A stretch of DNA of 16,405 bases, from the IMG/VR virus record IMGVR_UViG_2563366929_000009. One strand, written 5' to 3'. Below, piece after piece: positions 1,422 to 12,322 of the stretch (the first letter of the stretch is position 1; each line of letters begins with the position of its first letter). The translations under genes were made by a program, and so were the position numbers. The notes under the pieces were generated by a model. The model searched no databases. It was not told the DNA's origin and saw only the letters and a program-made list of their open reading frames with translations. Source of the DNA: a virus. Lineage: Duplodnaviria > Heunggongvirae > Uroviricota > Caudoviricetes.

Positions 1422-3893
1422 TTAAAAATCAGCCTGATTTGGGATCAGTTTTTGCCAGATAGCTGAAACGTATTTTGCCTGGTAACGGGCGTCATCAAGT
1501 GCATTATGGCGCTCACCTTCGAATGGAATAGCCGTTCTGGCATCGAAGTCTATGGCTTTCCCCAGCTCAACGATTGTGCGTACATCGCGATCGTTGTAGT
1601 AACGCCACGGGCAGGGGATCCCCTGCCGTTCGTATGAACGGCGCAAAATCGTGTTGTCGAAGTTGGCTCCATTTCCCCAAACCTGAACAAAAAATTCACC
1701 GGAGTTTTCGTCGATAAATTCCCGCAATTGTAACAGTGCATCATCTAACGGGATTTCATCGGTCATAATGGCAGATTGCGCTTCGCGTGATTGCTTAAGC
1801 CACCATTTAATGGTGTCCCGATCAATGACTCCGCCAGCAGTTTCCAGATCGATAGTCTTACTAAATTCCGGTCCCATATCTCCGGTTTGCGGATCGAAAA
1901 ATATTGCACCTATTGAGATGATCGGGGCATCAGGATTTTTTCCCATGGTTTCAAGGTCGATCATTAGATGGTCACACGTCCTGCTGGTGGATGTGATTTC
2001 GTGATGACCGTTCACCTTAATTGGGTGATCTGCCGTCTCGCCAGTTTCATTATCGCTATTGTGATGCTGATTGCCGCCAGTGTTCTCCTTGTGTGGATGT
2101 TCAGCGCCTTCCATTTCCTCCGGATCATCTTCCTGAACTTCAACCTGATACTCTTCATCGAATGTTTCTTGGTATGTTGCGTCGCCCATCACCGCGCCAC
2201 AATCAGGACAGTTGCCGCCGCCGGTCTGACCGCAGGCGGTGCAGGCTTTTTCCACTTCCTGGTGCGCCACTGGTTCAGGCTGTTTCGTTTCTGGCTCGTT
2301 TTGTAACGCATTTGGACTGTTTTGTTCCGCTTTTTGGTAGTTCCGTTCCGATTCATGCTGGTTCTGGCTCACAGAATCGCGGGTCTGGATCCCCTTAATC
2401 CATTTCGGATCATTCGGGTCACTAATCCCTTCAACAAATTCACCACGTGATGCAGCAAGCAACTTATCGGCGTCAGGCTGGCTGATATTGGCTGCCTGCA
2501 TAATTTTGTTTACTTCGTCAGCGGTAACTTTTATCGGCTCTGGTTGTTCTGAATCTTCAGCGGTATCTACATTTTGCGGTAAGCCCGTGTATGTGCCATT
2601 TTTTCGGGCAAAATATTCTTCTTTTGTGATTTCAGTGGCGCCAGCAGCCAGTGCCTTATCCAGACCAGAAAGTTTGTTTGCGCGACCGTATTTTTCTCCG
2701 TCCTTATCTGCGAAGAGGAAATAGAACGGCCCCTCACGCTCTACAGATGGTTCAGCTTCCGGCGCGGTTTCATTTTTTGGGATATCAGATACCTCAGTTT
2801 CCACTGCATCAGTTTGTGTTTCTGATGACTGGAGAACATCAACAGTGCCCAGGTCTGTTTCTTCATTCTCAAACACGCCCTTTGTCGTCAGGTATTCGCA
2901 GATATATTTGTTCAGTGCTACGGGATCTTTGTGAATGTCGATCGGACGCTCACGGACAAGGCCAAAAATAGTTTGGCGGTCGTAGCGAAGGGCATCAGGC
3001 TGTTTGCGCATTGATGCCGAGATACGCTTCCAGTCTTCGCGGTCGTTGTCGATAACTTCTTTTTTTGCCCAGCGATGGATGCTGCCGTCAATGTTTCCGG
3101 CATCCACATCACCAGGCCAGAGAGCGTAGGCCAGTTCGTCATCCAGTGTTTTCCATGTCTGCTTGTATTCGCGATGAATGGCAGCAATGACCGGGCTGAT
3201 TTTTCCTGTTGAATTTTCAGTGTACTGTTGATTGGCTCTGGCGCGGGCGAGATCAACAACAGACGTGTATTTTCCGGTTTCCTTGCGTTCACCTTCGCGA
3301 CGTTTTTTCCAGATGCGCATCTCTGCCTGAATTTCGGGCCATTTAGCACCAGGAATACATTTATGCTTAACCCACCCAATGGCGTGCAACTTAAGCTCCG
3401 GATACATGGCGTTAACTTCTGGCATTTTCATCAACGCTTCAACGATATGTCCGTCGAATGTTGCCATGTCTTCCTGCAACAATTCCTGTGCGCTAATAAC
3501 CATATCAACGGTGATGTTTTCACATGTGTCGAACTTAACCATGACAGCGTTCTGTACTTCAGGGGCCAGCTTGTCAAAAGTGACGTTCATCGGATCGGAT
3601 TCAGTCTCGACCGGAACAAAGGAAGCAGACGCCTCATCCCAGCGGTTTTCCTGCATATATTCAGCATCCCAGGAATCGAGGGCAGGGCGGGGTATACCGG
3701 GTTTATCCTCGCAAACAAGAAATTTATAAGCGCAGTCCTGAGCAGCCGGATAATGTTCCAGGAATTGCCAGTGAAATTTTGCGCGGGCGCGACGTTCATC
3801 ACCGGCTTCAATGGCAGTGGCTACAGCGACGGCACCTTCTTCCTTTATTGCCTGTTCGTCCGGAATGGCGGCGCAAATAAAGACTTTACTCAT
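1422..3893 (-). CDS. Phage exonuclease, large multidomain protein with C-terminal DnaQ-like (DEDDh) 3'-5' exonuclease domain
   Basis: 823-aa ORF with GAGG Shine-Dalgarno 8 nt upstream of ATG. C-terminal ~180 aa carry DEDDh motifs: Exo I MIDLETMG, Exo II WGNGANFD, Exo III HNALDDARYQ. Central C-x2-C-x7-C-x2-C zinc-ribbon-like motif (CTACGQTGGGNCPDCG) and an acidic/His-rich low-complexity linker. Position matches the exo slot of the lambdoid recombination module. Confidence 0.8.
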   Translation of the reverse strand: MSKVFICAAIPDEQAIKEEGAVAVATAIEAGDERRARAKFHWQFLEHYPAAQDCAYKFLVCEDKPGIPRPALDSWDAEYMQENRWDEASASFVPVETESDPMNVTFDKLAPEVQNAVMVKFDTCENITVDMVISAQELLQEDMATFDGHIVEALMKMPEVNAMYPELKLHAIGWVKHKCIPGAKWPEIQAEMRIWKKRREGERKETGKYTSVVDLARARANQQYTENSTGKISPVIAAIHREYKQTWKTLDDELAYALWPGDVDAGNIDGSIHRWAKKEVIDNDREDWKRISASMRKQPDALRYDRQTIFGLVRERPIDIHKDPVALNKYICEYLTTKGVFENEETDLGTVDVLQSSETQTDAVETEVSDIPKNETAPEAEPSVEREGPFYFLFADKDGEKYGRANKLSGLDKALAAGATEITKEEYFARKNGTYTGLPQNVDTAEDSEQPEPIKVTADEVNKIMQAANISQPDADKLLAASRGEFVEGISDPNDPKWIKGIQTRDSVSQNQHESERNYQKAEQNSPNALQNEPETKQPEPVAHQEVEKACTACGQTGGGNCPDCGAVMGDATYQETFDEEYQVEVQEDDPEEMEGAEHPHKENTGGNQHHNSDNETGETADHPIKVNGHHEITSTSRTCDHLMIDLETMGKNPDAPIISIGAIFFDPQTGDMGPEFSKTIDLETAGGVIDRDTIKWWLKQSREAQSAIMTDEIPLDDALLQLREFIDENSGEFFVQVWGNGANFDNTILRRSYERQGIPCPWRYYNDRDVRTIVELGKAIDFDARTAIPFEGERHNALDDARYQAKYVSAIWQKLIPNQADF

Positions 3894-3993
3894 TTTGTTT
3901 TACCTCATTACAGATTTAAGGGTGAACAAATCCCTGCCGGTGATGCTGCCAACTTACTGATTTAGTGTATGATGGTGTTTTTGAGGTGCTCCA

Positions 3994-4269
3994 GTGGCTT
4001 CTGTTTCTATCAGCTGTCCCTCCTGTTCAGCTACTGACGGGGTGGTGCGTAACGGCAAAAGCACCGCCGGACATCAGCGCTATCTCTGCTCTCACTGCCG
4101 TAAAACATGGCAACTGCAGTTCACTTACACCGCTTCTCAACCCGGTACGTACCAGAAAATCATTGATATGGCCATGAATGGCGTTGGATGCCGGGCAACA
4201 GCCCGCATTATGGGCGTTGGCCTCAACACGATTTTACGTCACTTAAAAAACTCAGGCCGCAGTCGGTAA
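3994..4269 (+). CDS. insA: IS1 InsA (transposition inhibitor / N-terminal part of InsAB' transposase)
   Basis: 91-aa [27 protein letters not shown].. recognised as IS1 InsA. Confidence 0.9.
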
Positions 4270-4691
4270 CCTCGCGCATACAGCCGGGCAGTGATGTGAT
4301 TGTCTGCGCTGAAATGGACGAACAGTGGGGCTATGTCGGGGCTAAATCGCGCCAGCGCTGGCTGTTTTACGCGTATGACAGGCTCCGGAAGACGGTTGTT
4401 GCGCACGTATTCGGTGAACGCACTATGGCGACGCTGGGGCGTCTTATGAGCCTGCTGTCACCCTTTGACGTGGTGATATGGATGACGGATGGCTGGCCGC
4501 TGTATGAATCCCGCCTGAAGGGAAAGCTGCACGTAATCAGCAAGCGATATACGCAGCGAATTGAGCGGCATAACCTGAATCTGAGGCAGCACCTGGCACG
4601 GCTGGGACGGAAGTCGCTGTCGTTCTCAAAATCGGTGGAGCTGCATGACAAAGTCATCGGGCATTATCTGAACATAAAACACTATCAATAA
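4188..4691 (+). CDS. insB: IS1 InsB' reading frame (expressed as InsAB' transposase by -1 frameshift)
   Basis: -1 frame relative to insA and overlapping its 3' end; A6C slippery motif at 4243..4251. Sequence ..[30 protein letters not shown].. is typical IS1 InsB. Confidence 0.88.
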
Positions 4692-4784
4692 GTTGGAGTC
4701 ATTACCGAGAAAGATGATGTCTACATAGCCAATTGTATAGAAAAAGGTAAGACTGAATTTAAAGTAAGCAAAGATATTGCTGCG

Positions 4785-5159
4785 TTGCCTTTCAAGGGTG
4801 AACCCATCGAGAAAATTAGGGGAGAGCTAATCAGGTCAATCAAGGAACACTTGATCAGTGCAAGCTGGCATAGCACTAAAAAGGTAATCGACCGCTATGA
4901 AGCTACATTCGATATAAAAGTACAAAAAGACTGTCCGATAGAAGCTATTGAATTGGCAACCCTCAATCGAAATCACTTAGTGCATCGTGGTGGAAAGGAT
5001 AAAGAAGGGAACCTCGTAGTGATTACAGACCAGGATCTTGAAACGCTGATTGAAAATGCATCGAACCTGGCAATTATGCTCTACAACAGTTTAAATGTAG
5101 CAACGAATAAAACCACCATTTTGCAACCAGATGACAAACCGTTCATTCATGAATTTTAA
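4785..5159 (+). CDS. Hypothetical protein, probably a 5'-truncated remnant (frame open back to the IS1 junction at 4707)
   Basis: ORF-track start is TTG with no Shine-Dalgarno. The same frame stays open upstream to the insB stop at 4689..4691, with no ATG or GTG in between. AT-rich codon composition unlike the flanking prophage genes. No recognisable family motif. Confidence 0.45.
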   Translation: MPFKGEPIEKIRGELIRSIKEHLISASWHSTKKVIDRYEATFDIKVQKDCPIEAIELATLNRNHLVHRGGKDKEGNLVVITDQDLETLIENASNLAIMLYNSLNVATNKTTILQPDDKPFIHEF

Positions 5160-5174
5160 TAGCGCAGGTCATAC

Positions 5175-6176
5175 ATGGATATTCGCACACGAAAGACAAA
5201 ATTTTTAGAGTCGTTAGATTCAACTGAAGTGATACGCAAAGCAGTAAGTCTCGCTATAGATTGCATTATTGATAATCATAATAGTAATGAAGATACCCCC
5301 TTAGTTATTACCAGCTATGATGATCTCTGTAGAATCCAGGTGCTAAATTATGTACAGGAGTTTTGCGAAGCTGCATTCCCTGATATGGATGAATATTACT
5401 TTAGTCCTAACATACTTCGCATCAACGGCAAGACTAGTGAAGAAGCTTGTATTAACTTAATTAAACTCTTAAGAAGTACAAAAGGCATGCTATTCTGGTC
5501 CGATGCCCCATCGTGGTTCGCTAGCCTCCCCGACGGATTATTCCATGTTGTTAACATTGATCAAAAAATCGTTACTCGCGGCCTTAATAAGAAAAACTCT
5601 AAGCCGACAATAATCAATAAAGATTACAGTGTAGATACACTACTATCAGAGCTATTTTTGAATGGCGCACACATGGAGCAACCCAACGTACACAACGTTT
5701 CTGAGGGAAACATGAAGTTCTATGATGAATGCCATGCTGGATTAATCAGACCAATACCCGCTCCAATAGGCGCGTCATACGATGAAGAGATCACAATTAA
5801 TTCTCCAGATTGGCAAAAGCTCGCGTGTGTAGCTTTACGCCGCTATCAGTCGAAGGAATGTCATGACGGAATGCAATGGGATACAACCGATCATGGTTGG
5901 ACTGATGTAATCGCGTATCCATTCGTCGAAGAAATACAATCAATGGATAATAGTGGTTATCGACAATGTTTAGTTGGGCTGGTCACAATAAACAATTCAA
6001 ATGCAAATTCTCCGTACCTATCTACCGTTTGGATACATCCATTTTATCGCAGGAGAGGGTTATTAAGTAAGTTATGGCCAAAATTACAAGAGTTATATGG
6101 AAGTAACTTCGAAATTGAGCGACCTAATGAAAATATGAAAGCATTTCTGAAAAGTGCGAAACACGCAGATTACTAA
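5175..6176 (+). CDS. Hypothetical 333-aa protein with a C-terminal GNAT-acetyltransferase-like motif
   Basis: ATG with weak AGGT Shine-Dalgarno 5 nt upstream. Visibly AT-rich. C-terminal segment LVGLVTINN..YLSTVWIHPFYRRRGLLSKLWPKL resembles GNAT motif A (beta4-alpha3, V.P..RR.G). The N-terminal ~230 aa are unrecognised. Confidence 0.7.
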   Translation: MDIRTRKTKFLESLDSTEVIRKAVSLAIDCIIDNHNSNEDTPLVITSYDDLCRIQVLNYVQEFCEAAFPDMDEYYFSPNILRINGKTSEEACINLIKLLRSTKGMLFWSDAPSWFASLPDGLFHVVNIDQKIVTRGLNKKNSKPTIINKDYSVDTLLSELFLNGAHMEQPNVHNVSEGNMKFYDECHAGLIRPIPAPIGASYDEEITINSPDWQKLACVALRRYQSKECHDGMQWDTTDHGWTDVIAYPFVEEIQSMDNSGYRQCLVGLVTINNSNANSPYLSTVWIHPFYRRRGLLSKLWPKLQELYGSNFEIERPNENMKAFLKSAKHADY

Positions 6177-6492
6177 TTTATGAATCAGTCTGTGGAGTTA
6201 GGGTTGGTGTCAACAAGTAGGGTAAGAGCCTCAACGTGATGCTATGCCGACCTGCTCCCTGAGAATTCACACAGAAGGCTGCTAGCAATGTCTGCAGATC
6301 GCTCAAAGCGGACTAGAAGGTTAGCTTGCGTCGGACTTGGCGTATTTAAAGAAGTGCTGGTGGTGACTGGTTGTTGTGTTCCATTTCTACAGAACAAAAT
6401 CACAGAAACTATACCCAATAGTTATATTGAATCAATGATGAGACAGCCTCATATTTATCAGAACTGGTGTACGTCCAATACAGGAGGTTGTC

Positions 6493-6582
6493 GTGCTGGT
6501 TCTCAAATGTGCGCTAGCTATTGCGGCTGTAATGGCAATTTATTGTCTTGCTGTTGTTCTTATGGATCGCCTTTCTGATTGA
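6493..6582 (+). CDS. Candidate small hydrophobic peptide (29 aa: MLVLKCALAIAAVMAIYCLAVVLMDRLSD if GTG is read as Met)
   Basis: Near-consensus Shine-Dalgarno AGGAGG at 6482..6487, 5 nt before GTG at 6493. Single predicted transmembrane helix plus short charged tail. Possible -35 TTGAAT / -10 CATATT about 40-60 nt upstream. Below the ORF-track size cutoff. Confidence 0.3.
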   Translation: MLVLKCALAIAAVMAIYCLAVVLMDRLSD

Positions 6583-6793
6583 TTTTATATTGGCGAGGTG
6601 ACGGGAGTTAAGTAGAATTGCTGCGGGTGCTTGAGGCTATCTGCCTCAGGCATGAACACCAAAGGCAGATAGAGAAAAGCCCCAGTTAATATTACGCGTC
6701 CTGCAAGACGCTTAACATTAATCTGAGGCTCAATCTATGAACGGCAAATCTAGGTTAGCCTCTTACGTGCCGAAAGGCAAGGAGAAGCAGGCT

Positions 6794-6949
6794 ATGAAGC
6801 AGCAAAAGGCGATGTTAATCGCCCTGATCGTCATCTGTTTAACCGTCATAGTGACGGCACTGGTAACGAGGAAAGACCTCTGCGAGGTACGAATCCGAAC
6901 CGGCCAGACGGAGGTCGCTGTCTTCACAGTTTACGAACCTGAGGAGTAA
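6794..6949 (+). CDS. hokD: Hok/Gef-family type I toxin (HokD/RelF-like, 51 aa)
   Basis: MKQQKAMLIALIVICLTVIVTALVTRKDLCEVRIRTGQTEVAVFTVYEPEE is near-identical to my recollection of HokD. GGAGA Shine-Dalgarno 9 nt upstream. The in-frame upstream extension from 6737 (ORF-track 70-aa ORF) may be a mok-like leader ORF. Hairpin GGCGAGGG-agaaat-CCCTCGCC follows the stop, as at hok mRNA 3' ends. Confidence 0.85.
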   Translation: MKQQKAMLIALIVICLTVIVTALVTRKDLCEVRIRTGQTEVAVFTVYEPEE

Positions 6950-6987
6950 GAGACCCGGCGAGGGAGAAATCCCTCGCCACCTCTGAT

Positions 6988-7395
6988 GTGTCAGGCATCC
7001 TCAACGCACCCGCACGTAACCCGCTTCGGCGGGTTTTGTTTTTTCCTGGCATTCTGGTTTACAATTCGCACGCCAGCCTGAACAACTGGCACCTGCTGCG
7101 CCAGCAGAGACAACCGATGGCGCACGATACCAAATTACACAATTCTGATGATTCTGCCGTCTTTGCCAGCAGGCACGGGCGGCGTTCCCGCACTTTCAAA
7201 TCTGACTGGTTCCAGCATCCCCCATGCACTGAAGAACAGGCCGAGTGGCTAATTCAGTGCTACCGCAGACACGGATACGAGATTAAGAAAGCCCTCAGCC
7301 TCGATTATCGTCACTGGATAATCTCCGTCAGGCTTCCTTACTCCGAACGATCACCGCGTCCGTCCCGCACATTCCAGCAACGCATCTGGAGGTAA
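6988..7395 (+). CDS. Hypothetical protein (start uncertain: GTG 6988 or ATG 7117); occupies the rem-like slot between hok and the DUF968 gene
   Basis: Open frame ending at TAA 7393..7395, one nucleotide before the downstream gene; that gene's GGAGG Shine-Dalgarno lies inside its 3' end. GC-rich composition like neighbouring prophage genes. No family recognised. Confidence 0.4.
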   Translation: MSGILNAPARNPLRRVLFFPGILVYNSHASLNNWHLLRQQRQPMAHDTKLHNSDDSAVFASRHGRRSRTFKSDWFQHPPCTEEQAEWLIQCYRRHGYEIKKALSLDYRHWIISVRLPYSERSPRPSRTFQQRIWR

Positions 7396-7396
7396 C

Positions 7397-8443
7397 GTGC
7401 GAGTATTACTTCGACCTGTTCTGGTACCGGAACTCGGGCTGGTGATCGTTAAGCCGGGCCGTGAATCCATGCCGGTATTCCACAATACCCGGGTACTGGT
7501 GGAGCCGGAACCGAAAAGCATGCGTAATCTGCCGTCCGGGGTTGTTCCTGCCGTTCGCCAGCCGCTAGTGGAAGACAAAACATTGCTGCCGTTTTTCAGT
7601 AACGCACGGGTGATTCGTGCTGCTGGTGGTGCTGGTGCATTGTCTGACTGGCTGTTGCGCCATATTAAATCCTGCCAGTGGCCACACGGCGATTATCATC
7701 ACAGCGAAACCGTCATTCACCGTTATGGTACCGGCGCAATGGTGTTGTGCTGGCACTGCGACAACCAGCTGCGTGACCAGACATCCGAATCACTCGAGCA
7801 ACTTGCTCATCAAAACCTGTCAGCATGGATGATTGACGTCATACTCCATGCAATGAATGGCTCGCAGGAACGGGAATTATCGCTGGCTGAATTATCCTGG
7901 TGGGCGGTCCGCAATCAGGTGGCGGACGCGCTACCGGAAGCGGTATTACGTCGTTCGCTGGGGTTGCGTGCGGAAAAAATCCGCTCAATGTACCGTGAAA
8001 GCGACATCGTACCGGGAGAGCAGACCGCCACCAGCATACTGAAGCAGCGCACAAAAAATCTTGCGCCGCTGCCTCACGCCCACCAGCAAAACCCGCCACA
8101 GGAAGAGACGGTGGTCAGCATTGCCGTTGATCCTGAGTCTCCGGAATCTTTCATGAAACGACCTAAACGTCGCCGCTGGGTTAACGAGAAATACACACGC
8201 TGGGTGAAGACACAGCCGTGTGCGTGTTGTGGTAAGCCAGCCGACGATCCCCATCACCTGATTGGTCATGGTCAGGGCGGAATGGGGACAAAATCTCACG
8301 ATATTTTCACGCTACCGCTGTGTCGGGAGCATCACAACGAGCTTCATGCGGATCCTCTGGCGTTCGAAGAAAAGCATGGTTCTCAGGTTGATTTAATTTT
8401 TCGTTTTCTTGATCACGCCTTTGCAACTGGCGTGCTTGGGTAA
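7397..8443 (+). CDS. DUF968 / YdfU-like lambdoid nin-region protein with C-terminal Cys/His (HNH-like) cluster
   Basis: 348-aa ORF, GTG start with GGAGG Shine-Dalgarno. C-terminus CACCGKPADDPHHLIGHGQGGMGTKSHDIFTLPLCREHHNELH. Sits immediately upstream of rusA and Q, as ydfU does in Qin-type prophages. Confidence 0.75.
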   Translation: MRVLLRPVLVPELGLVIVKPGRESMPVFHNTRVLVEPEPKSMRNLPSGVVPAVRQPLVEDKTLLPFFSNARVIRAAGGAGALSDWLLRHIKSCQWPHGDYHHSETVIHRYGTGAMVLCWHCDNQLRDQTSESLEQLAHQNLSAWMIDVILHAMNGSQERELSLAELSWWAVRNQVADALPEAVLRRSLGLRAEKIRSMYRESDIVPGEQTATSILKQRTKNLAPLPHAHQQNPPQEETVVSIAVDPESPESFMKRPKRRRWVNEKYTRWVKTQPCACCGKPADDPHHLIGHGQGGMGTKSHDIFTLPLCREHHNELHADPLAFEEKHGSQVDLIFRFLDHAFATGVLG

Positions 8444-8455
8444 AAGAGGTGACTG

Positions 8456-8830
8456 ATGCTCATAGATTTGGTTTTACCTTACCCGCCGACGGTGAACACT
8501 TACTGGCGACGCCGTGGCAGCACATATTTTATCTCGGAGGAGGGAAAGCGTTATCGCCGGGCTGTGGCGCTTATTGTTCGCCAGCAGCGGCTGAAATTAA
8601 GCCTGTCCGGAAGGCTGGCGATAAAGGTGATTGCAGAGCCACCGGATAAGCGTCGTCGCGACCTGGACAATATCCTGAAAGCACCGCTGGATGCGCTGAC
8701 GCATGCGGGAGTGTTAATGGACGATGAGCAGTTTGATGAAATCAATATCGTTCGTGGTCAGCCAGTATCTGGTGGACGTATGGGGGTGAAGATTTACCCC
8801 ATAATGCATGAAGAGCAGGTCAAAAAATGA
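8456..8830 (+). CDS. rusA: RusA Holliday-junction resolvase
   Basis: 124 aa. Motifs ..PPTVNTYWRR.. and ..PDKRRRDLDNILKAPLDALTHAGVLMDDEQ.. match the RusA family (catalytic Asp cluster). AGGTGA Shine-Dalgarno. Confidence 0.9.
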   Translation: MLIDLVLPYPPTVNTYWRRRGSTYFISEEGKRYRRAVALIVRQQRLKLSLSGRLAIKVIAEPPDKRRRDLDNILKAPLDALTHAGVLMDDEQFDEINIVRGQPVSGGRMGVKIYPIMHEEQVKK

Positions 8831-9648
8831 AACTGGAAGATTTACCGAAATACTACTCCCCAAAATCCCCTGGCCTGACCGATGCATCGGCCTCAACGTC
8901 AAAAGATGCGCTGAGTATCACTGATGTGATGGCCGCGCAGGGCATGACACAGAATCGGGCTGAGATGGGGTTTTCTGCGTTCCTGGGGAAAATGGGCATC
9001 AGTATGAATGACAGGGCGCGGGCAACAGAATTACTGGCAGATTATGCACTCAGTCGGTGCGATCGTGTGGCGGCGTTGAGAAAACTTCCGGCAGAAATAA
9101 AACCGGTAGTGATGCGCATTATGGCTTCGTATGCGTTTGAAGATTATGCCCGTAGCGCGGCGAGCAAAAAACAGTGCCCTTGCTGTCACGGAAAAAAATT
9201 TATTGAAAGCGAGGTTTTTACAAACAAGATCCAGTATCCGGATGGTAAGCCACCAGTGTGGGCAAAGTGCACAAAAGGCGTGTATCCGTCTTACTGGGAA
9301 GAATGGAAAAAAGTCAGGGAGGTGGTAAAAGTTGCCTGTCCGGAGTGTGGCGGAAAGGGTGAGGTTTCCACCGCCTGTAAGGATTGCCGTGGGCGTGGTG
9401 TCGCCATTCATCGTGAAGAGTCGGTAAAACGTGGTATGCCTGTTATCAGAGATTGCCAGCGTTGTGGTGGTCGTGGCTGTGAAAGGCTGCCATCAACGGA
9501 GGCATTTAATGCCATATGCAAAGTGACGAGTGCTATCACGCTTGATACGTGGAAAAAATCAGTGAAACGCTTTTACGATACGTTGGTGGTTCGGTTTGAC
9601 ATTGAAGAGGCATGGGCGGAGCGGCAGTTAAAGAGGGTAACGCGATAG
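8827..9648 (+). CDS. Q: Late-gene antitermination protein Q-like
   Basis: 273 aa. Start overlaps the rusA stop (ATGA). Lies directly upstream of a pR'-like promoter. Carries four CxxCxGxG-type Cys repeats (CPCCHGKK, CPECGGKG, CKDCRGRG, CQRCGGRG). Confidence 0.8.
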   Translation: MKLEDLPKYYSPKSPGLTDASASTSKDALSITDVMAAQGMTQNRAEMGFSAFLGKMGISMNDRARATELLADYALSRCDRVAALRKLPAEIKPVVMRIMASYAFEDYARSAASKKQCPCCHGKKFIESEVFTNKIQYPDGKPPVWAKCTKGVYPSYWEEWKKVREVVKVACPECGGKGEVSTACKDCRGRGVAIHREESVKRGMPVIRDCQRCGGRGCERLPSTEAFNAICKVTSAITLDTWKKSVKRFYDTLVVRFDIEEAWAERQLKRVTR

Positions 9649-9653
9649 TGTTG

Positions 9654-9693
9654 TTGATTTTTCCCGAATCTGTGGTAAATTTGCTCTAACGAT
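9654..9693 (+). promoter_or_regulatory. Late promoter pR' with promoter-proximal pause element (qut region)
   Basis: -35 TTGATT (9654..9659), 16-nt spacer, -10 TAAATT (9676..9681). Downstream TTTGCTCTAACGATGGG closely matches the lambda pR' initial transcribed region (TAAATTTGACTCAACGATGGG), including the AACGAT pause-inducing element. Confidence 0.7.
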
Positions 9694-9730
9694 GGGCGTT
9701 TTATGCCTGACGTTAGAAGATTTTTTACAC

Positions 9731-9752
9731 CCCGCCGCCTGGCGGGTTTTTT
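9731..9752 (+). terminator. Intrinsic terminator tR'-like
   Basis: Stem CCCGCC / GGCGGG with loop GCCT followed by a T6 run, about 45 nt downstream of the pR' start region. Confidence 0.75.
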
Positions 9753-9872
9753 ATGACTGAAATCGCGTCAGTACAGTAAACGCGCTGGTGGCGGTGAATA
9801 CCTGTCTTTCAGCTTGCTGGCTTTTTCGACAAGAGTTATTGGTGTGTCACGTTAACCGGAAAAGGAAAAGAC

Positions 9873-10070
9873 ATGCTAAAACAGCAGGATATGACAGAAA
9901 CCGCCAGAGTGGTGTTTAATGAATTAAGCGTTACCGACCCGGCGACAGTCGGGGAGATAGCGCAGAATACTTACCTTTCACGCGAACGCTGCCAGTTAAT
10001 ACTGACTCAGCTGGTTATGGCGGGTCTGGCAGACTATCAGTTCGGTTGTTACAGACGCCTTCCGCAGTGA
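9873..10070 (+). CDS. Small hypothetical protein (65 aa) with possible helix-turn-helix
   Basis: AAGGAA Shine-Dalgarno before ATG. Segment ATVGEIAQNTYLSRERCQLILTQLVMAGL looks HTH-like. First ORF after tR' in the late operon. Confidence 0.5.
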   Translation: MLKQQDMTETARVVFNELSVTDPATVGEIAQNTYLSRERCQLILTQLVMAGLADYQFGCYRRLPQ

Positions 10071-10097
10071 AGGCTTTTTTATTTGTGGTAAATGGGC

Positions 10098-10128
10098 GGC
10101 TGGTGGGTGTTAGGGGCACCCACCAGCC
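10098..10128. repeat. Perfect 12-bp inverted repeat (GGCTGGTGGGTG / CACCCACCAGCC) with 7-nt spacer
   Basis: Seen directly in the sequence between the small HTH-like ORF and the methyltransferase. Not followed by a T-run, so more likely an operator or RNA structure than a terminator. Confidence 0.5.
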
Positions 10129-10220
10129 ATCTGCTCATGCGTCCGGATCACAAGCAAACCTCAGGCCCACTGCTTTGCGCAAAAGCAGAATGAGCCTATC
10201 AGAGACAGGCTTAATGATCC

Positions 10221-11270
10221 ATGCTTAATACTGTAAAAATATCCAGTTGTGAGTTAATCAACGCCGACTGCCTGGAATTTATCCGGTCGTTACCCGAAAA
10301 TTCTGTTGACCTGATAGTCACGGACCCGCCGTACTTTAAAGTGAAGCCTGAGGGCTGGGATAACCAGTGGAAGGGCGACGATGATTACCTGAAGTGGCTG
10401 GACCAGTGTCTGGCGCAGTTCTGGCGGGTGCTGAAACCTGCCGGAAGTCTTTACCTGTTCTGTGGTCATCGCCTGGCATCTGATATCGAAATCATGATGC
10501 GTGAACGCTTCAGTGTGCTGAACCATATTATCTGGGCGAAGCCGTCCGGACGCTGGAACGGATGCAACAAGGAAAGGCTGCGGGCGTATTTCCCCGCCAC
10601 AGAGCGCATTCTGTTCGCGGAACATTATCAGGGGCCGTATCGTCCGAAAGATGCCGGGTATGCGGCGAAGGGCAGTGCACTGAAACAGCATGTGATGGCC
10701 CCGCTGATTTCTTACTTTCGTGATGCGCGCGCGGCCCTGGGGATAACGGCAAAACAGATTGCAGATGCCACAGGAAAGAAAAACATGGTGTCGCACTGGT
10801 TCAGTGCCAGTCAGTGGCAGCTACCGAATGAAAGCGATTATCTGAAATTACAGGCGCTGTTTGCCCGGGTGGCAGAAGAGAAGCATCGGCGTGGTGAACT
10901 GGAAAAGCTCCACCACCAGCTGGTGGATACGTATACCTCACTGAACCGGCAGTATGCGGAGCTGCTGAGTGAATATAAACATCTGCGGCGGTATTTTGGC
11001 GTGACGGTGCAGGTGCCGTATACCGATGTGTGGACGCATAAACCGGTGCAGTTCTATCCCGGGAAACATCCGTGCGAAAAACCGGCAGAAATGCTGCAGC
11101 AGATAATCAGCGCAAGTAGCCGTCCTGGTGATCTGGTTGCGGATTTTTTCATGGGGTCGGGTTCAACGGTAAAAGCGGCGATGGCACTGGGGCGTCGTGC
11201 GATTGGTGTTGAGCTGGAGACCGGACGTTTTGAGCAGACAGTCAGGGAAGTTCAGGATTTAATCGTTTGA
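10221..11270 (+). CDS. Orphan DNA amino-methyltransferase, beta-class (N6-adenine or N4-cytosine)
   Basis: 349 aa. Catalytic DPPY motif near the N-terminus (SVDLIVTDPPYF) and AdoMet-binding FxGxG (FFMGSGST) near the C-terminus. Motif IV before motif I indicates beta-class. No adjacent restriction-endonuclease gene. Confidence 0.88.
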   Translation: MLNTVKISSCELINADCLEFIRSLPENSVDLIVTDPPYFKVKPEGWDNQWKGDDDYLKWLDQCLAQFWRVLKPAGSLYLFCGHRLASDIEIMMRERFSVLNHIIWAKPSGRWNGCNKERLRAYFPATERILFAEHYQGPYRPKDAGYAAKGSALKQHVMAPLISYFRDARAALGITAKQIADATGKKNMVSHWFSASQWQLPNESDYLKLQALFARVAEEKHRRGELEKLHHQLVDTYTSLNRQYAELLSEYKHLRRYFGVTVQVPYTDVWTHKPVQFYPGKHPCEKPAEMLQQIISASSRPGDLVADFFMGSGSTVKAAMALGRRAIGVELETGRFEQTVREVQDLIV

Positions 11271-11319
11271 AACGGATGAGATTGCAGAATTAATTACGCA
11301 CCATTATTATTCTGCTCCC

Positions 11320-11395
11320 GGCCCTTTAGCTCAGTGGTGAGAGCGAGCGACTCATAATCGCCAGGTCGCTGGTTCAAATCCAGCAAGGGCCACCA
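11320..11395 (+). tRNA. ileZ: tRNA with CAT anticodon, most likely tRNA-Ile2 (lysidine-type, ileZ-like); tRNA-Met not excluded
   Basis: 76 nt with encoded CCA. Acceptor stem GGCCCTT/AAGGGCC, D-arm AGCTCAGTGGTGAGAGC, anticodon loop CTCATAA, T-arm GGTTCAAATCC. Resembles my recollection of E. coli ileX. Confidence 0.85.
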
Positions 11396-11402
11396 TCACA
11401 TA

Positions 11403-11479
11403 CCGCCATTAGCTCATCAGGAAAGAGCGCCAGCCTTCGAAGCTGGTTGCGCGGAGTTCGGGTCCCCGAAGGCGGTCCA
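11403..11479 (+). tRNA. tRNA-like sequence with UCG (Arg) anticodon; degenerate, possibly a pseudogene
   Basis: Cloverleaf can be drawn (anticodon loop CTTCGAA) but with A.A mismatch in the acceptor stem, a mismatch in the T-stem and an atypical T-loop TTCGGGT (G at the conserved A58 position). Confidence 0.45.
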
Positions 11480-11492
11480 TTATCTGTATCCT

Positions 11493-11569
11493 GCGTTGTT
11501 AGCTCAGCCGGACAGAGCAATTGCCTTCTAAGCAATCGGTCACTGGTTCGAATCCAGTACAACGCGCCA
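11493..11569 (+). tRNA. tRNA-Arg (anticodon UCU)
   Basis: 77 nt. Acceptor GCGTTGT/ACAACGC, discriminator G and CCA. Anticodon stem ATTGC/GCAAT with loop CTTCTAA. T-arm GGTTCGAATCC. Confidence 0.85.
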
Positions 11570-11584
11570 CACTTATTTTCCCTG

Positions 11585-11608
11585 GCTCGCTTTTGCGGGC
11601 TTTTTTTT
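11585..11608 (+). terminator. Intrinsic terminator after the tRNA cluster
   Basis: GCTCGC-tttt-GCGGGC hairpin (one G.U pair) followed by a T8 run. Confidence 0.6.
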
Positions 11609-11614
11609 AAATGT

Positions 11615-11828
11615 CTCACAATTCAGGCGGTTGACTGTTGTCTGGTTTGCGGGGAGTTTGTTAAAAGAAACTGGCATGGTGAATCCCCCTGTGCGGAGGG
11701 GCAATCAGCGAGTAGGTATATGGGATAATCGCGGATTCAGGTGCTGGTACTGAATTCACCGGGAGGCACCCGGCACCATGCAATGGCACATAGCGCCACT
11801 CTCCAGCCCCTCTCCGGAGGGGCTTTTC
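11615..11828 (+). repeat. Structured unit A: promoter-like element, hairpin, SD-ATG and terminator modules
   Basis: Shares conserved blocks with unit B: CTCACAATTCAG, GTTGAC, TTTGTTAAAA, GCATGGTGAATCCCCCTG.GCGGAGGGGC, GGTATA, TCACCGGGAGGCACCCGGCACCATG, AGCCCCTCTCCGGAGGGG+T-run. Blocks are separated by divergent spacers. Tiny ORFs at 11778..11903 (41 aa) and coupled 11903..12004 (33 aa). Confidence 0.6.
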
Positions 11829-12018
11829 TGTGCCGGATACATCACAGTTTCTGGAACCTTAGGTACTACAGTATCAGTCAGGGTGCTATATTTTCAGATG
11901 TGATGAAAGCCTGTCAGCAGGCAGGGCGTATCGGAAATGACCCAGTAGAGAAAACGTTGACTCAGATACCGGTGCTGAGTTACCGGGAAACCGGCATCAC
12001 ATGACCGCTATCCTTCCA

Positions 12019-12045
12019 GGCCCATCCGCTCCGGTGGGCCTTTTT
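12019..12045 (+). terminator. Intrinsic terminator
   Basis: GGCCCA ... TGGGCC stem with 10-nt loop followed by T5. Confidence 0.55.
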
Positions 12046-12082
12046 ACTGCAGAAAACAGGTTCCCCGTTAAATGCTATGTTG

Positions 12083-12316
12083 CTCACAATTCAGTAAGTT
12101 GACAGTTGCCTGTCAGACTGGGCATTTGTTAAAAAAATTTCGCATGGTGAATCCCCCTGAGCGGAGGGGCGACTGGTGACGGTATAATCTCTGATTATCA
12201 AAACGAGAATGACGCGGGTTTAGTGGCACCGGGCTGAACTCACCGGGAGGCACCCGGCACCATGTGCATGATGATACAGATACGCGGCTTTAGCCCCTCT
12301 CCGGAGGGGTTTTCTT
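12083..12316 (+). repeat. Structured unit B (paralogue of unit A)
   Basis: Same conserved module set as unit A. Includes consensus -35 TTGACA (12099..12104) and consensus -10 TATAAT (12183..12188). Terminator CCCCTC-tccg-GAGGGG + TTTT at 12294..12316. Confidence 0.6.
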
Positions 12317-12322
12317 GTGGGC

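Follow-up and report, generated by a model that had tools for sequence, protein, structure and literature searches.

The window, a stretch of 16,405 nucleotides, contains an IS1A element that runs directly into an open reading frame, and the question that this locus raises is whether that frame is a short gene in its own right or the remainder of a longer one, as the initial annotation had supposed. We conclude, with a probability of roughly 0.9, that 4707-5159 is a dead gene remnant left by an IS1-associated deletion, and not a short gene. We refer to the surviving piece as the stump, to the gene from which it derives as gene 1 and to the gene downstream as gene 2. The features on which the argument rests are the following.

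3930-3938, no strand: the last 9 bp of the flank to the left of IS1A, ATCCCTGCC.
3939-4706, + strand: IS1A, 768 bp long and along its whole length 100% identical to the annotated IS1A copy in strain SF-173.
3994-4269, + strand: insA, from the listing of open reading frames.
4188-4691, + strand: the insB' frame, from the same listing, overlapping insA, as in an IS1 whose transposase arises through a -1 frameshift.
4706/4707, no strand: the deletion junction, with the right end of IS1 abutting codon 171 of the truncated gene.
4707-5159, + strand: a 5'-truncated pseudogene, codons 171-320 and the stop of a 320-codon gene of predicted PF18870-HEPN architecture.
4785-4787, + strand: TTG, the first in-frame start-like codon, with no Shine-Dalgarno sequence before it.

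Read from 4692 to 5159, the frame runs through 155 sense codons before it meets a stop, and the two remaining forward frames of the same interval hold 14 and 16 stops. The frame is indeed open back to the IS1 right end, and it is shared by the insB stop TAA (4689-4691), by 4692-5159 and by the TTG at 4785. From the junction up to 4785 the frame has neither ATG nor GTG, just ATT and ATA codons, and the 20 nt ahead of the TTG (TAAGCAAAGATATTGCTGCG) hold no AGGAG-like motif, both in agreement with the initial annotation; the subsequent in-frame starts are a GTG at 4980 and an ATG at 5076. At the given base composition the 31 stop-free codons before the TTG would occur by chance with p ~0.10 and by themselves are weak evidence, and a 155-codon open frame would occur with p ~1e-5. 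The deciding evidence for truncation is homology, as read from sequence comparison.

Direct alignment with the prophage of strain UTI89 (locus L001) revealed that 3445-3938 is 100% identical to L001:1-494 and that 4707-12200 corresponds to L001:6001-13494 with one mismatch (at 10577), the IS1 standing in place of 5506 bp found in UTI89. The intact gene is present there at L001:5491-6453 as a 963-nt CDS encoding a protein of 320 aa (WP_014639476.1), and 4707-5156 encodes residues 171-320 of this protein with all residues identical, so that the ~150 surviving codons are, as had been proposed, the C-terminal part of a larger protein. The lost 5506 bp carry ydfD, dicB, ydfC, ydfB, ydfA, a LexA-family repressor, cro, ydaT, a 1071-nt gene and a DUF977 gene, both of the replication region, and the opening 510 nt of gene 1; this loss of 5.5 kb of prophage DNA besides the 5' end of the gene had been missed. 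In the identical genome FDAARGOS_1301, whose RefSeq record also places the prophage next to ompW, RefSeq labels the element 'IS1-like element IS1A family transposase, programmed frameshift' and the stump a pseudogene, 'hypothetical protein; incomplete; missing N-terminus'. The stump is thus an ordinary IS1-generated pseudogene that was already known from the RefSeq flags in identical genomes. The RefSeq start of the intact gene is a GTG that gives 320 aa, and some gene callers add 20 upstream codons to give 340 aa from an ATG (P0010 against L001:5491-6453). The 320-aa form is more likely, because the extra 19 residues of the longer form have a pLDDT <50 and are not conserved among homologues.

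To determine the distribution of the locus, 5426 complete E. coli genomes were searched by megablast with 4707-6200 as query (identity >=99%). The 3' part was found in 209 of the 5426, the exact junction of the window in four of them (FDAARGOS_1301, B20123, AH20K059 and OZ546967) and the 5' 510 nt in 205 (UTI89 and 204 more), where the 963-nt gene is uninterrupted with 100% identity across the break. These 205 genomes speak strongly against the notion that 4785-5159 is an intact 124-aa gene starting at the TTG, its contact with IS1 being coincidental, and the TTG without a Shine-Dalgarno sequence does so as well. What the notion has in its favour is that our gene collection holds called proteins of 102-137 aa matching this stretch, one of which (P0002) is exactly 124 aa. 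With the 150-aa stump as query just 9 proteins were recovered, mostly fragmentary and with called lengths of about 86-137 aa, and of the two whose contexts were examined, P0002 and P0007, neither is a genuine short homologue starting at the equivalent of 4785. P0002 could not be accepted as a genuine short gene: it lies 84 nt from a contig end, and ahead of its called start the sequence is still homologous to the long gene as far as residue 178, where unrelated sequence with an in-frame stop takes over. P0007 (133 aa) was rejected as well, being one piece of a Klebsiella pseudogene in which residues 1-305 are spread across three frames. An intact short gene at this position is therefore close to negligible as an explanation, and we return to the truncated long gene.

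Gene 1 is thus broken in places outside the window. In locus L055 (1-459) a gene 1 copy with 85% identity is cut at about residue 178, 7 codons from the break in the window, with unrelated sequence upstream where the contig ends and with gene 2 following intact, and in locus L056 (2369-3402) the copy in Klebsiella michiganensis is divided among three frames. These homologues have decayed independently of the window.

Inspection of the junction shows how the truncation may have come about. The IS1A element reads toward the stump, and its terminal inverted repeats are imperfect (left end GGTGATGCTGCC..., right end ...GGAGTCATTACC), with 22 of the first 35 positions matching, mostly in the terminal ~23 bp. 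Positions 4692-4706 are the IS1 right inverted repeat and 4707 is the first base after the element, a small correction to the initial annotation. No 9-bp target-site duplication surrounds the IS1A, the left flank being ATCCCTGCC and the right flank (4707-4715) GAGAAAGAT, as is expected of a copy that borders a deletion. A missing target duplication is described as characteristic either of an adjacent deletion or of two IS copies having recombined (PMC11708052), and its absence here points to an IS1-associated one-sided deletion; the ATCCCTGCC at 3930-3938 is probably what survives of the 9-bp IS1 target duplication, namely its left copy.

We propose that IS1A would first have inserted into the spacer between ydfD and exo, an exonuclease (recE-like) gene, of a lambdoid, Rac-like prophage integrated beside ompW, the probable 9-bp target being ATCCCTGCC. 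A one-sided IS1-mediated (adjacent) deletion would then have run rightward from the IS1 right end and taken 5506 bp, through the first 170 codons of the 320-codon gene. We infer this order, insertion first and adjacent deletion second, because no simple-insertion intermediate with both 9-bp copies in the same prophage was found among the complete genomes and because the prophage of strain E8 is different though related. In strain E8 there is a similarly oriented IS1A, to the right of which stand ATCCCTGCC and then ATTGCTGG; the same 9 bp close the left flank in the window, and in E8 the deletion went leftward into the exonuclease gene. An insertion into the exo/ydfD spacer that duplicated ATCCCTGCC as its target would be expected to give such a flank.

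A single IS1 followed by an adjacent deletion is the probable route, and the other one to be weighed is homologous recombination between two directly oriented IS1 copies, the first lying in the exo/ydfD spacer and the second inside gene 1 at codon 170/171, which would have left one IS1 behind. This would likewise predict unmatched IS1 flanks (PMC11708052), the host genomes have several IS1-matching places, and IS1 does strike this AT-rich module, as the IS1A in the second gene of SF-173 with its 9-bp duplication shows. Recombination of this kind is nevertheless unlikely, since a search of the 5426 complete genomes for IS1 fused to a preserved 5' half of the gene gave 0 places that cover >=80% of the query, and since at least three other genomes have an IS1 in or near the same spacer followed by a different one-sided deletion, which is the pattern of adjacent deletions. 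The end product is identical under both routes. Adjacent deletion also fits what has been described for IS1, IS903, IS10 and IS150 (PMC11708052), where, as in the window, the IS is intact, there is no target duplication, and one flank is the original site with the other lying kilobases away in related genomes. Measured against these examples there is nothing unusual in the window, and recombination between two IS1 copies is a minor alternative.

In other E. coli genomes the exo/ydfD spacer (3894-3938) has received repeated IS1 strikes (L040, L041, L004 and L054), by variants of 93-99% identity and at ~20-95 bp from the site in the window, and each strike near the spacer for which we followed the outcome (3045, NT1N31, E8 and 94EC) has its own. 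In strains 3045 and NT1N31, which carry differing IS1 variants near the spacer, the right-hand end-point of the deletion is in gpJ and in a replication-gene remnant, respectively. In strain 94EC (H35) the IS1 sits ~95 bp further on, within ydfD, without a deletion; this strain was considered as an insertion-only intermediate and rejected, as its prophage is a different one at a tRNA-Ser site. The spacer looks like an IS1 hotspot, or else like a place where loss of the dicB/ydfD/immunity region is selected.

In order to characterize the gene that was truncated, homologues were searched with the full-length protein as query, which was needed to recover the family. This search gave 122 homologues, nearly all of about 280-344 aa, with more than 100 of them at about 300-325 aa, and about 110 align from their N-termini; they come from Enterobacterales, Escherichia, Aeromonas, Yersinia, Dickeya, Serratia, Proteus, other genera and metagenomes. 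An N-terminal block, PYESREGGYxYIYGGPYDA, is strongly conserved in the homologues and is missing from the window. Six residues are invariant, all of them in the C-terminal half (W224, H225, R258, H263, R264 and G266 in the numbering of the 320-aa protein), and they include the arginine and histidine of an R-x4-H motif, invariant in 26/26 aligned homologues, which the stump retains:

4968-4985, + strand: R-x4-H motif RNHLVH (CGA AAT CAC TTA GTG CAT), with R258 and H263 of the intact protein.

Neither the stump nor the intact E. coli protein gave a match over curated cut-offs when scanned with Pfam, NCBIfam and PADLOC; the intact protein scores 22.2 bits against PF18870 (E 1.9e-4), below the cut-off of 27.4, and has no match to PF18735 at E up to 1. 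The domain assignment of the E. coli protein therefore comes from matches of its homologues and from the predicted fold. On the homologues, Pfam places PF18870 at ~25-120 and PF18735 at ~126-297 (in the collinear homologue P0070). PF18735 scores of 28.5-39.1 bits were obtained for P0108, P0110, P0094, P0120 and P0070 against a cut-off of 28.4, and PF18870 scores of 27.7-29.6 bits for the relatives P0120, P0123, P0124 and P0125 against 27.4. An AlphaFold2 model of the intact protein (mean pLDDT 79, numbering 20 ahead of the 320-aa protein) predicts an all-alpha HEPN fold in the intact ancestor. From the homologues and the model, the predicted architecture is an N-terminal PF18870 'HEPN/RES N-terminal domain 1' followed by a C-terminal RiboL-PSP-type HEPN domain. 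PHROGs returned two families of unknown function and nothing else, and a literature search on the protein accessions and PHROG ids found nothing.

By inference from these domains, the intact gene would encode a putative stand-alone abortive-infection-type anti-phage RNase, in which the N-terminal domain is predicted to sense or gate and the HEPN domain to cleave RNA. A putative defence role is also supported by genomic position: a 69%-identical homologue stands alone between gpA and ogr/portal of P2-like Yersinia prophages (L051-L053 3501-4445), and the gpA-portal region of P2-like prophages is a described anti-phage defence hotspot (PMC9122126).

We compared the intact protein with known defence systems. 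The closest parallel is aRES, a stand-alone anti-phage protein identified by PF18870 and a RES domain (10.64898/2026.01.28.702374). Like intact gene 1, aRES has an N-terminal PF18870, is a single protein of ~300 aa and is found in mobile elements and defence hotspots. The two differ in their C-terminal domains, which in aRES is a RES NAD+ phosphorylase and in gene 1 a HEPN domain with R-x4-H (a predicted RNase), and because the RES domain is absent and a C-terminal HEPN is there instead, gene 1 is not an aRES member. In the relative P0124 (407 aa), PF18870 lies C-terminal to a PIN_8/PIN_12 nuclease domain. PF18870 thus pairs with RES, HEPN and PIN effectors, as aRES, the gene 1 family and P0124 indicate.

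HepS, a single-protein HEPN abortive infection system of the Gifsy-1 prophage (PMC13043305), differs in being without PF18870, and no sequence relationship between it and gene 1 was detected. Unlike the HEPN/MNT toxin-antitoxin pairs (SO_3166; PDB 7ae2, 8xdj), gene 1 has as its neighbour a gene with a predicted GNAT fold and not an MNT nucleotidyltransferase, and most loci of gene 1 homologues are without gene 2 or any conserved neighbour. The PF18735 HEPN has been reported in PD-T4-2, PD-T4-5, PD-T7-3 and ApeA (review PMC10952713), and it is the Pfam HEPN subfamily that the gene 1 homologues match. The PADLOC models of these systems give no match to the intact protein at E <1. Across the PADLOC-DB v2.0.0 models, gene 1 gave three chance-level matches (E 0.009-0.022, over short stretches) and gene 2 gave none.

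In light of this architecture, we considered whether the stump could still act. The break at 170/171 lies inside the HEPN domain, because PF18735 spans ~126-297. The stump therefore begins at residue 171 without a complete HEPN domain: it has lost PF18870 and the opening ~45 HEPN residues, and ~125 HEPN residues, the C-terminal three quarters, remain. In the AlphaFold2 model the break falls exactly at the end of a 31-residue helix (model residues 160-190), which bears nearly invariant positions and is missing from the stump together with a second helix (139-154). A stump without promoter, ribosome-binding site, start codon, N-terminal domain and first long HEPN helices would most likely be neither translated nor able to fold. 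With an incomplete fold, and lacking an ATG or GTG start, a ribosome-binding site and a promoter to itself, the stump is very unlikely to have any residual function.

There is some ground for supposing that the stump is still made and active, from the TTG or as a read-through product of InsB or InsAB', in the form of a deregulated or dominant-negative HEPN fragment. It shares one frame with insB, from which it is separated by the TAA and five sense codons of the IS1 right end (4689-4706), so that read-through of the insB TAA would yield an InsB-HEPN fusion; IS1 transcription is directed toward it; and it keeps the R-x4-H motif together with the invariant W224, H225, R264 and G266. The agreement in frame is, however, a 1-in-3 coincidence, neither a Shine-Dalgarno sequence nor a read-through signal is present, and we found no evidence for an InsB-HEPN read-through product. 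Searches for an outward promoter at the IS1 right end and for a terminator past insB found neither, and no promoter-like site was found at the junction. The lost 31-residue helix with its nearly invariant HEPN residues and the start of the Pfam domain ~45 residues before the break also argue against activity. Weak expression of a HEPN fragment from IS1 transcription is a formal possibility, and an active fragment is very improbable. Gene 1 of the module in this strain should count as inactive, and the truncation itself is of little import, being routine IS1 erosion of a prophage.

Promoter-like sites across the region number 9 against a shuffled expectation of 5.8 ± 2.0, which is not clearly above it. 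One sigma-70-like site at 5050-5077 (TTGAAA, 16-nt spacer, AATTAT) is located toward the 3' end of the stump and within it, ~100 nt before the ATG of gene 2, and could serve as an internal promoter for gene 2, with the reservation that such sites are not above chance in this region.

The gene downstream is in a different state from the stump, and its relation to gene 1 bears on how the module is to be understood.

5175-6176, + strand: gene 2, intact, 333 aa, beginning 15 nt past the stop of the stump; the protein has an alpha/beta domain at its N-terminus and a predicted GNAT fold at its C-terminus.

The UTI89 counterpart is a 1002-nt CDS of 333 aa, also 15 nt after gene 1. It had been cautioned that only the downstream gene may be functional here, and this is reasonable, as gene 2 is full length in comparison with ~60 homologues and occurs without gene 1. 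The pair recurs with the same 15-nt spacer in a relaxase-carrying element of Aeromonas caviae (L042-L044 2523-4493), beside SIR2 and cREC genes, and recurs also in locus L055. Gene 1 is found alone in a Dickeya island, at the end of an Aeromonas prophage, in another E. coli element and in Yersinia P2-like prophages. Gene 2 is found without gene 1 on a viral contig, downstream of a 1044-aa P-loop protein, and in Shewanella, where an Abi_2 (HEPN-family) gene and then a 102-aa ORF precede it; the loci with gene 2 lacking gene 1 are these:

L045/L046, 1617-4496: gene 2 present, gene 1 absent.
L033, 195-5002: gene 2 present, gene 1 absent.

An obligate pair can thus be rejected, each gene being found apart from the other. 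Because the pair recurs and yet each gene also stands without the other, the link is facultative, and gene 2 may be an add-on that moves among different effectors, or else a defence-island gene in its own right.

In strain SF-173, gene 2 contains an IS1A in opposite orientation with a clean 9-bp target duplication (5728-5736; L002 7022-7807), which is a second, independent IS1 strike on the two-gene module. The G+C content is 36% for gene 1 (intact, UTI89) and 39% for gene 2, against 49% for the whole window, and the low G+C of this stretch (4707-6176) fits a horizontally acquired moron, and it agrees with the known preference of IS1 for AT-rich targets.

The widespread family of ~310-aa PF18870-HEPN proteins is uncharacterised and a reasonable candidate for defence screening, because its members are found in known hotspots and have their N-terminal domain in common with the validated aRES. 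Tentatively, and at somewhat less than even odds, the intact ancestor may be an unrecognised stand-alone anti-phage system, a sibling of aRES with a HEPN effector. If so, PF18870 would be an interchangeable infection sensor or gate that is wired to RES (NAD+ depletion), HEPN (RNA cleavage) or PIN, and gene 1 would sometimes be transferred with a 333-aa GNAT-fold partner. The repeated inactivation, by the IS1 deletion in the window, the IS1 in SF-173, the frameshifts in Klebsiella and the truncation in L055, would then reflect a fitness cost, and the window would hold merely a disarmed copy.

As for the rest of the element, the prophage is a non-inducible remnant because the repressor, cro, the replication genes, dicB and ydfD have been lost. 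Downstream of the deletion the hok/sok module is kept, with the sok antitoxin RNA (Rfam RF01794, 113 bits) overlapping the start of hokD at 6625-6949. Further on there are three prophage tRNA genes, in the intervals listed as 11320-11569, 11645-11835 and 12113-12322, alongside STnc100. The first of these is called Met (anticodon CAT) by ARAGORN and Ile by RefSeq in UTI89, and the second and third are Arg (TCG) and Arg (TCT). The tRNAs are followed by two copies of the sRNA STnc100 (RF02076, 136 and 161 bits).
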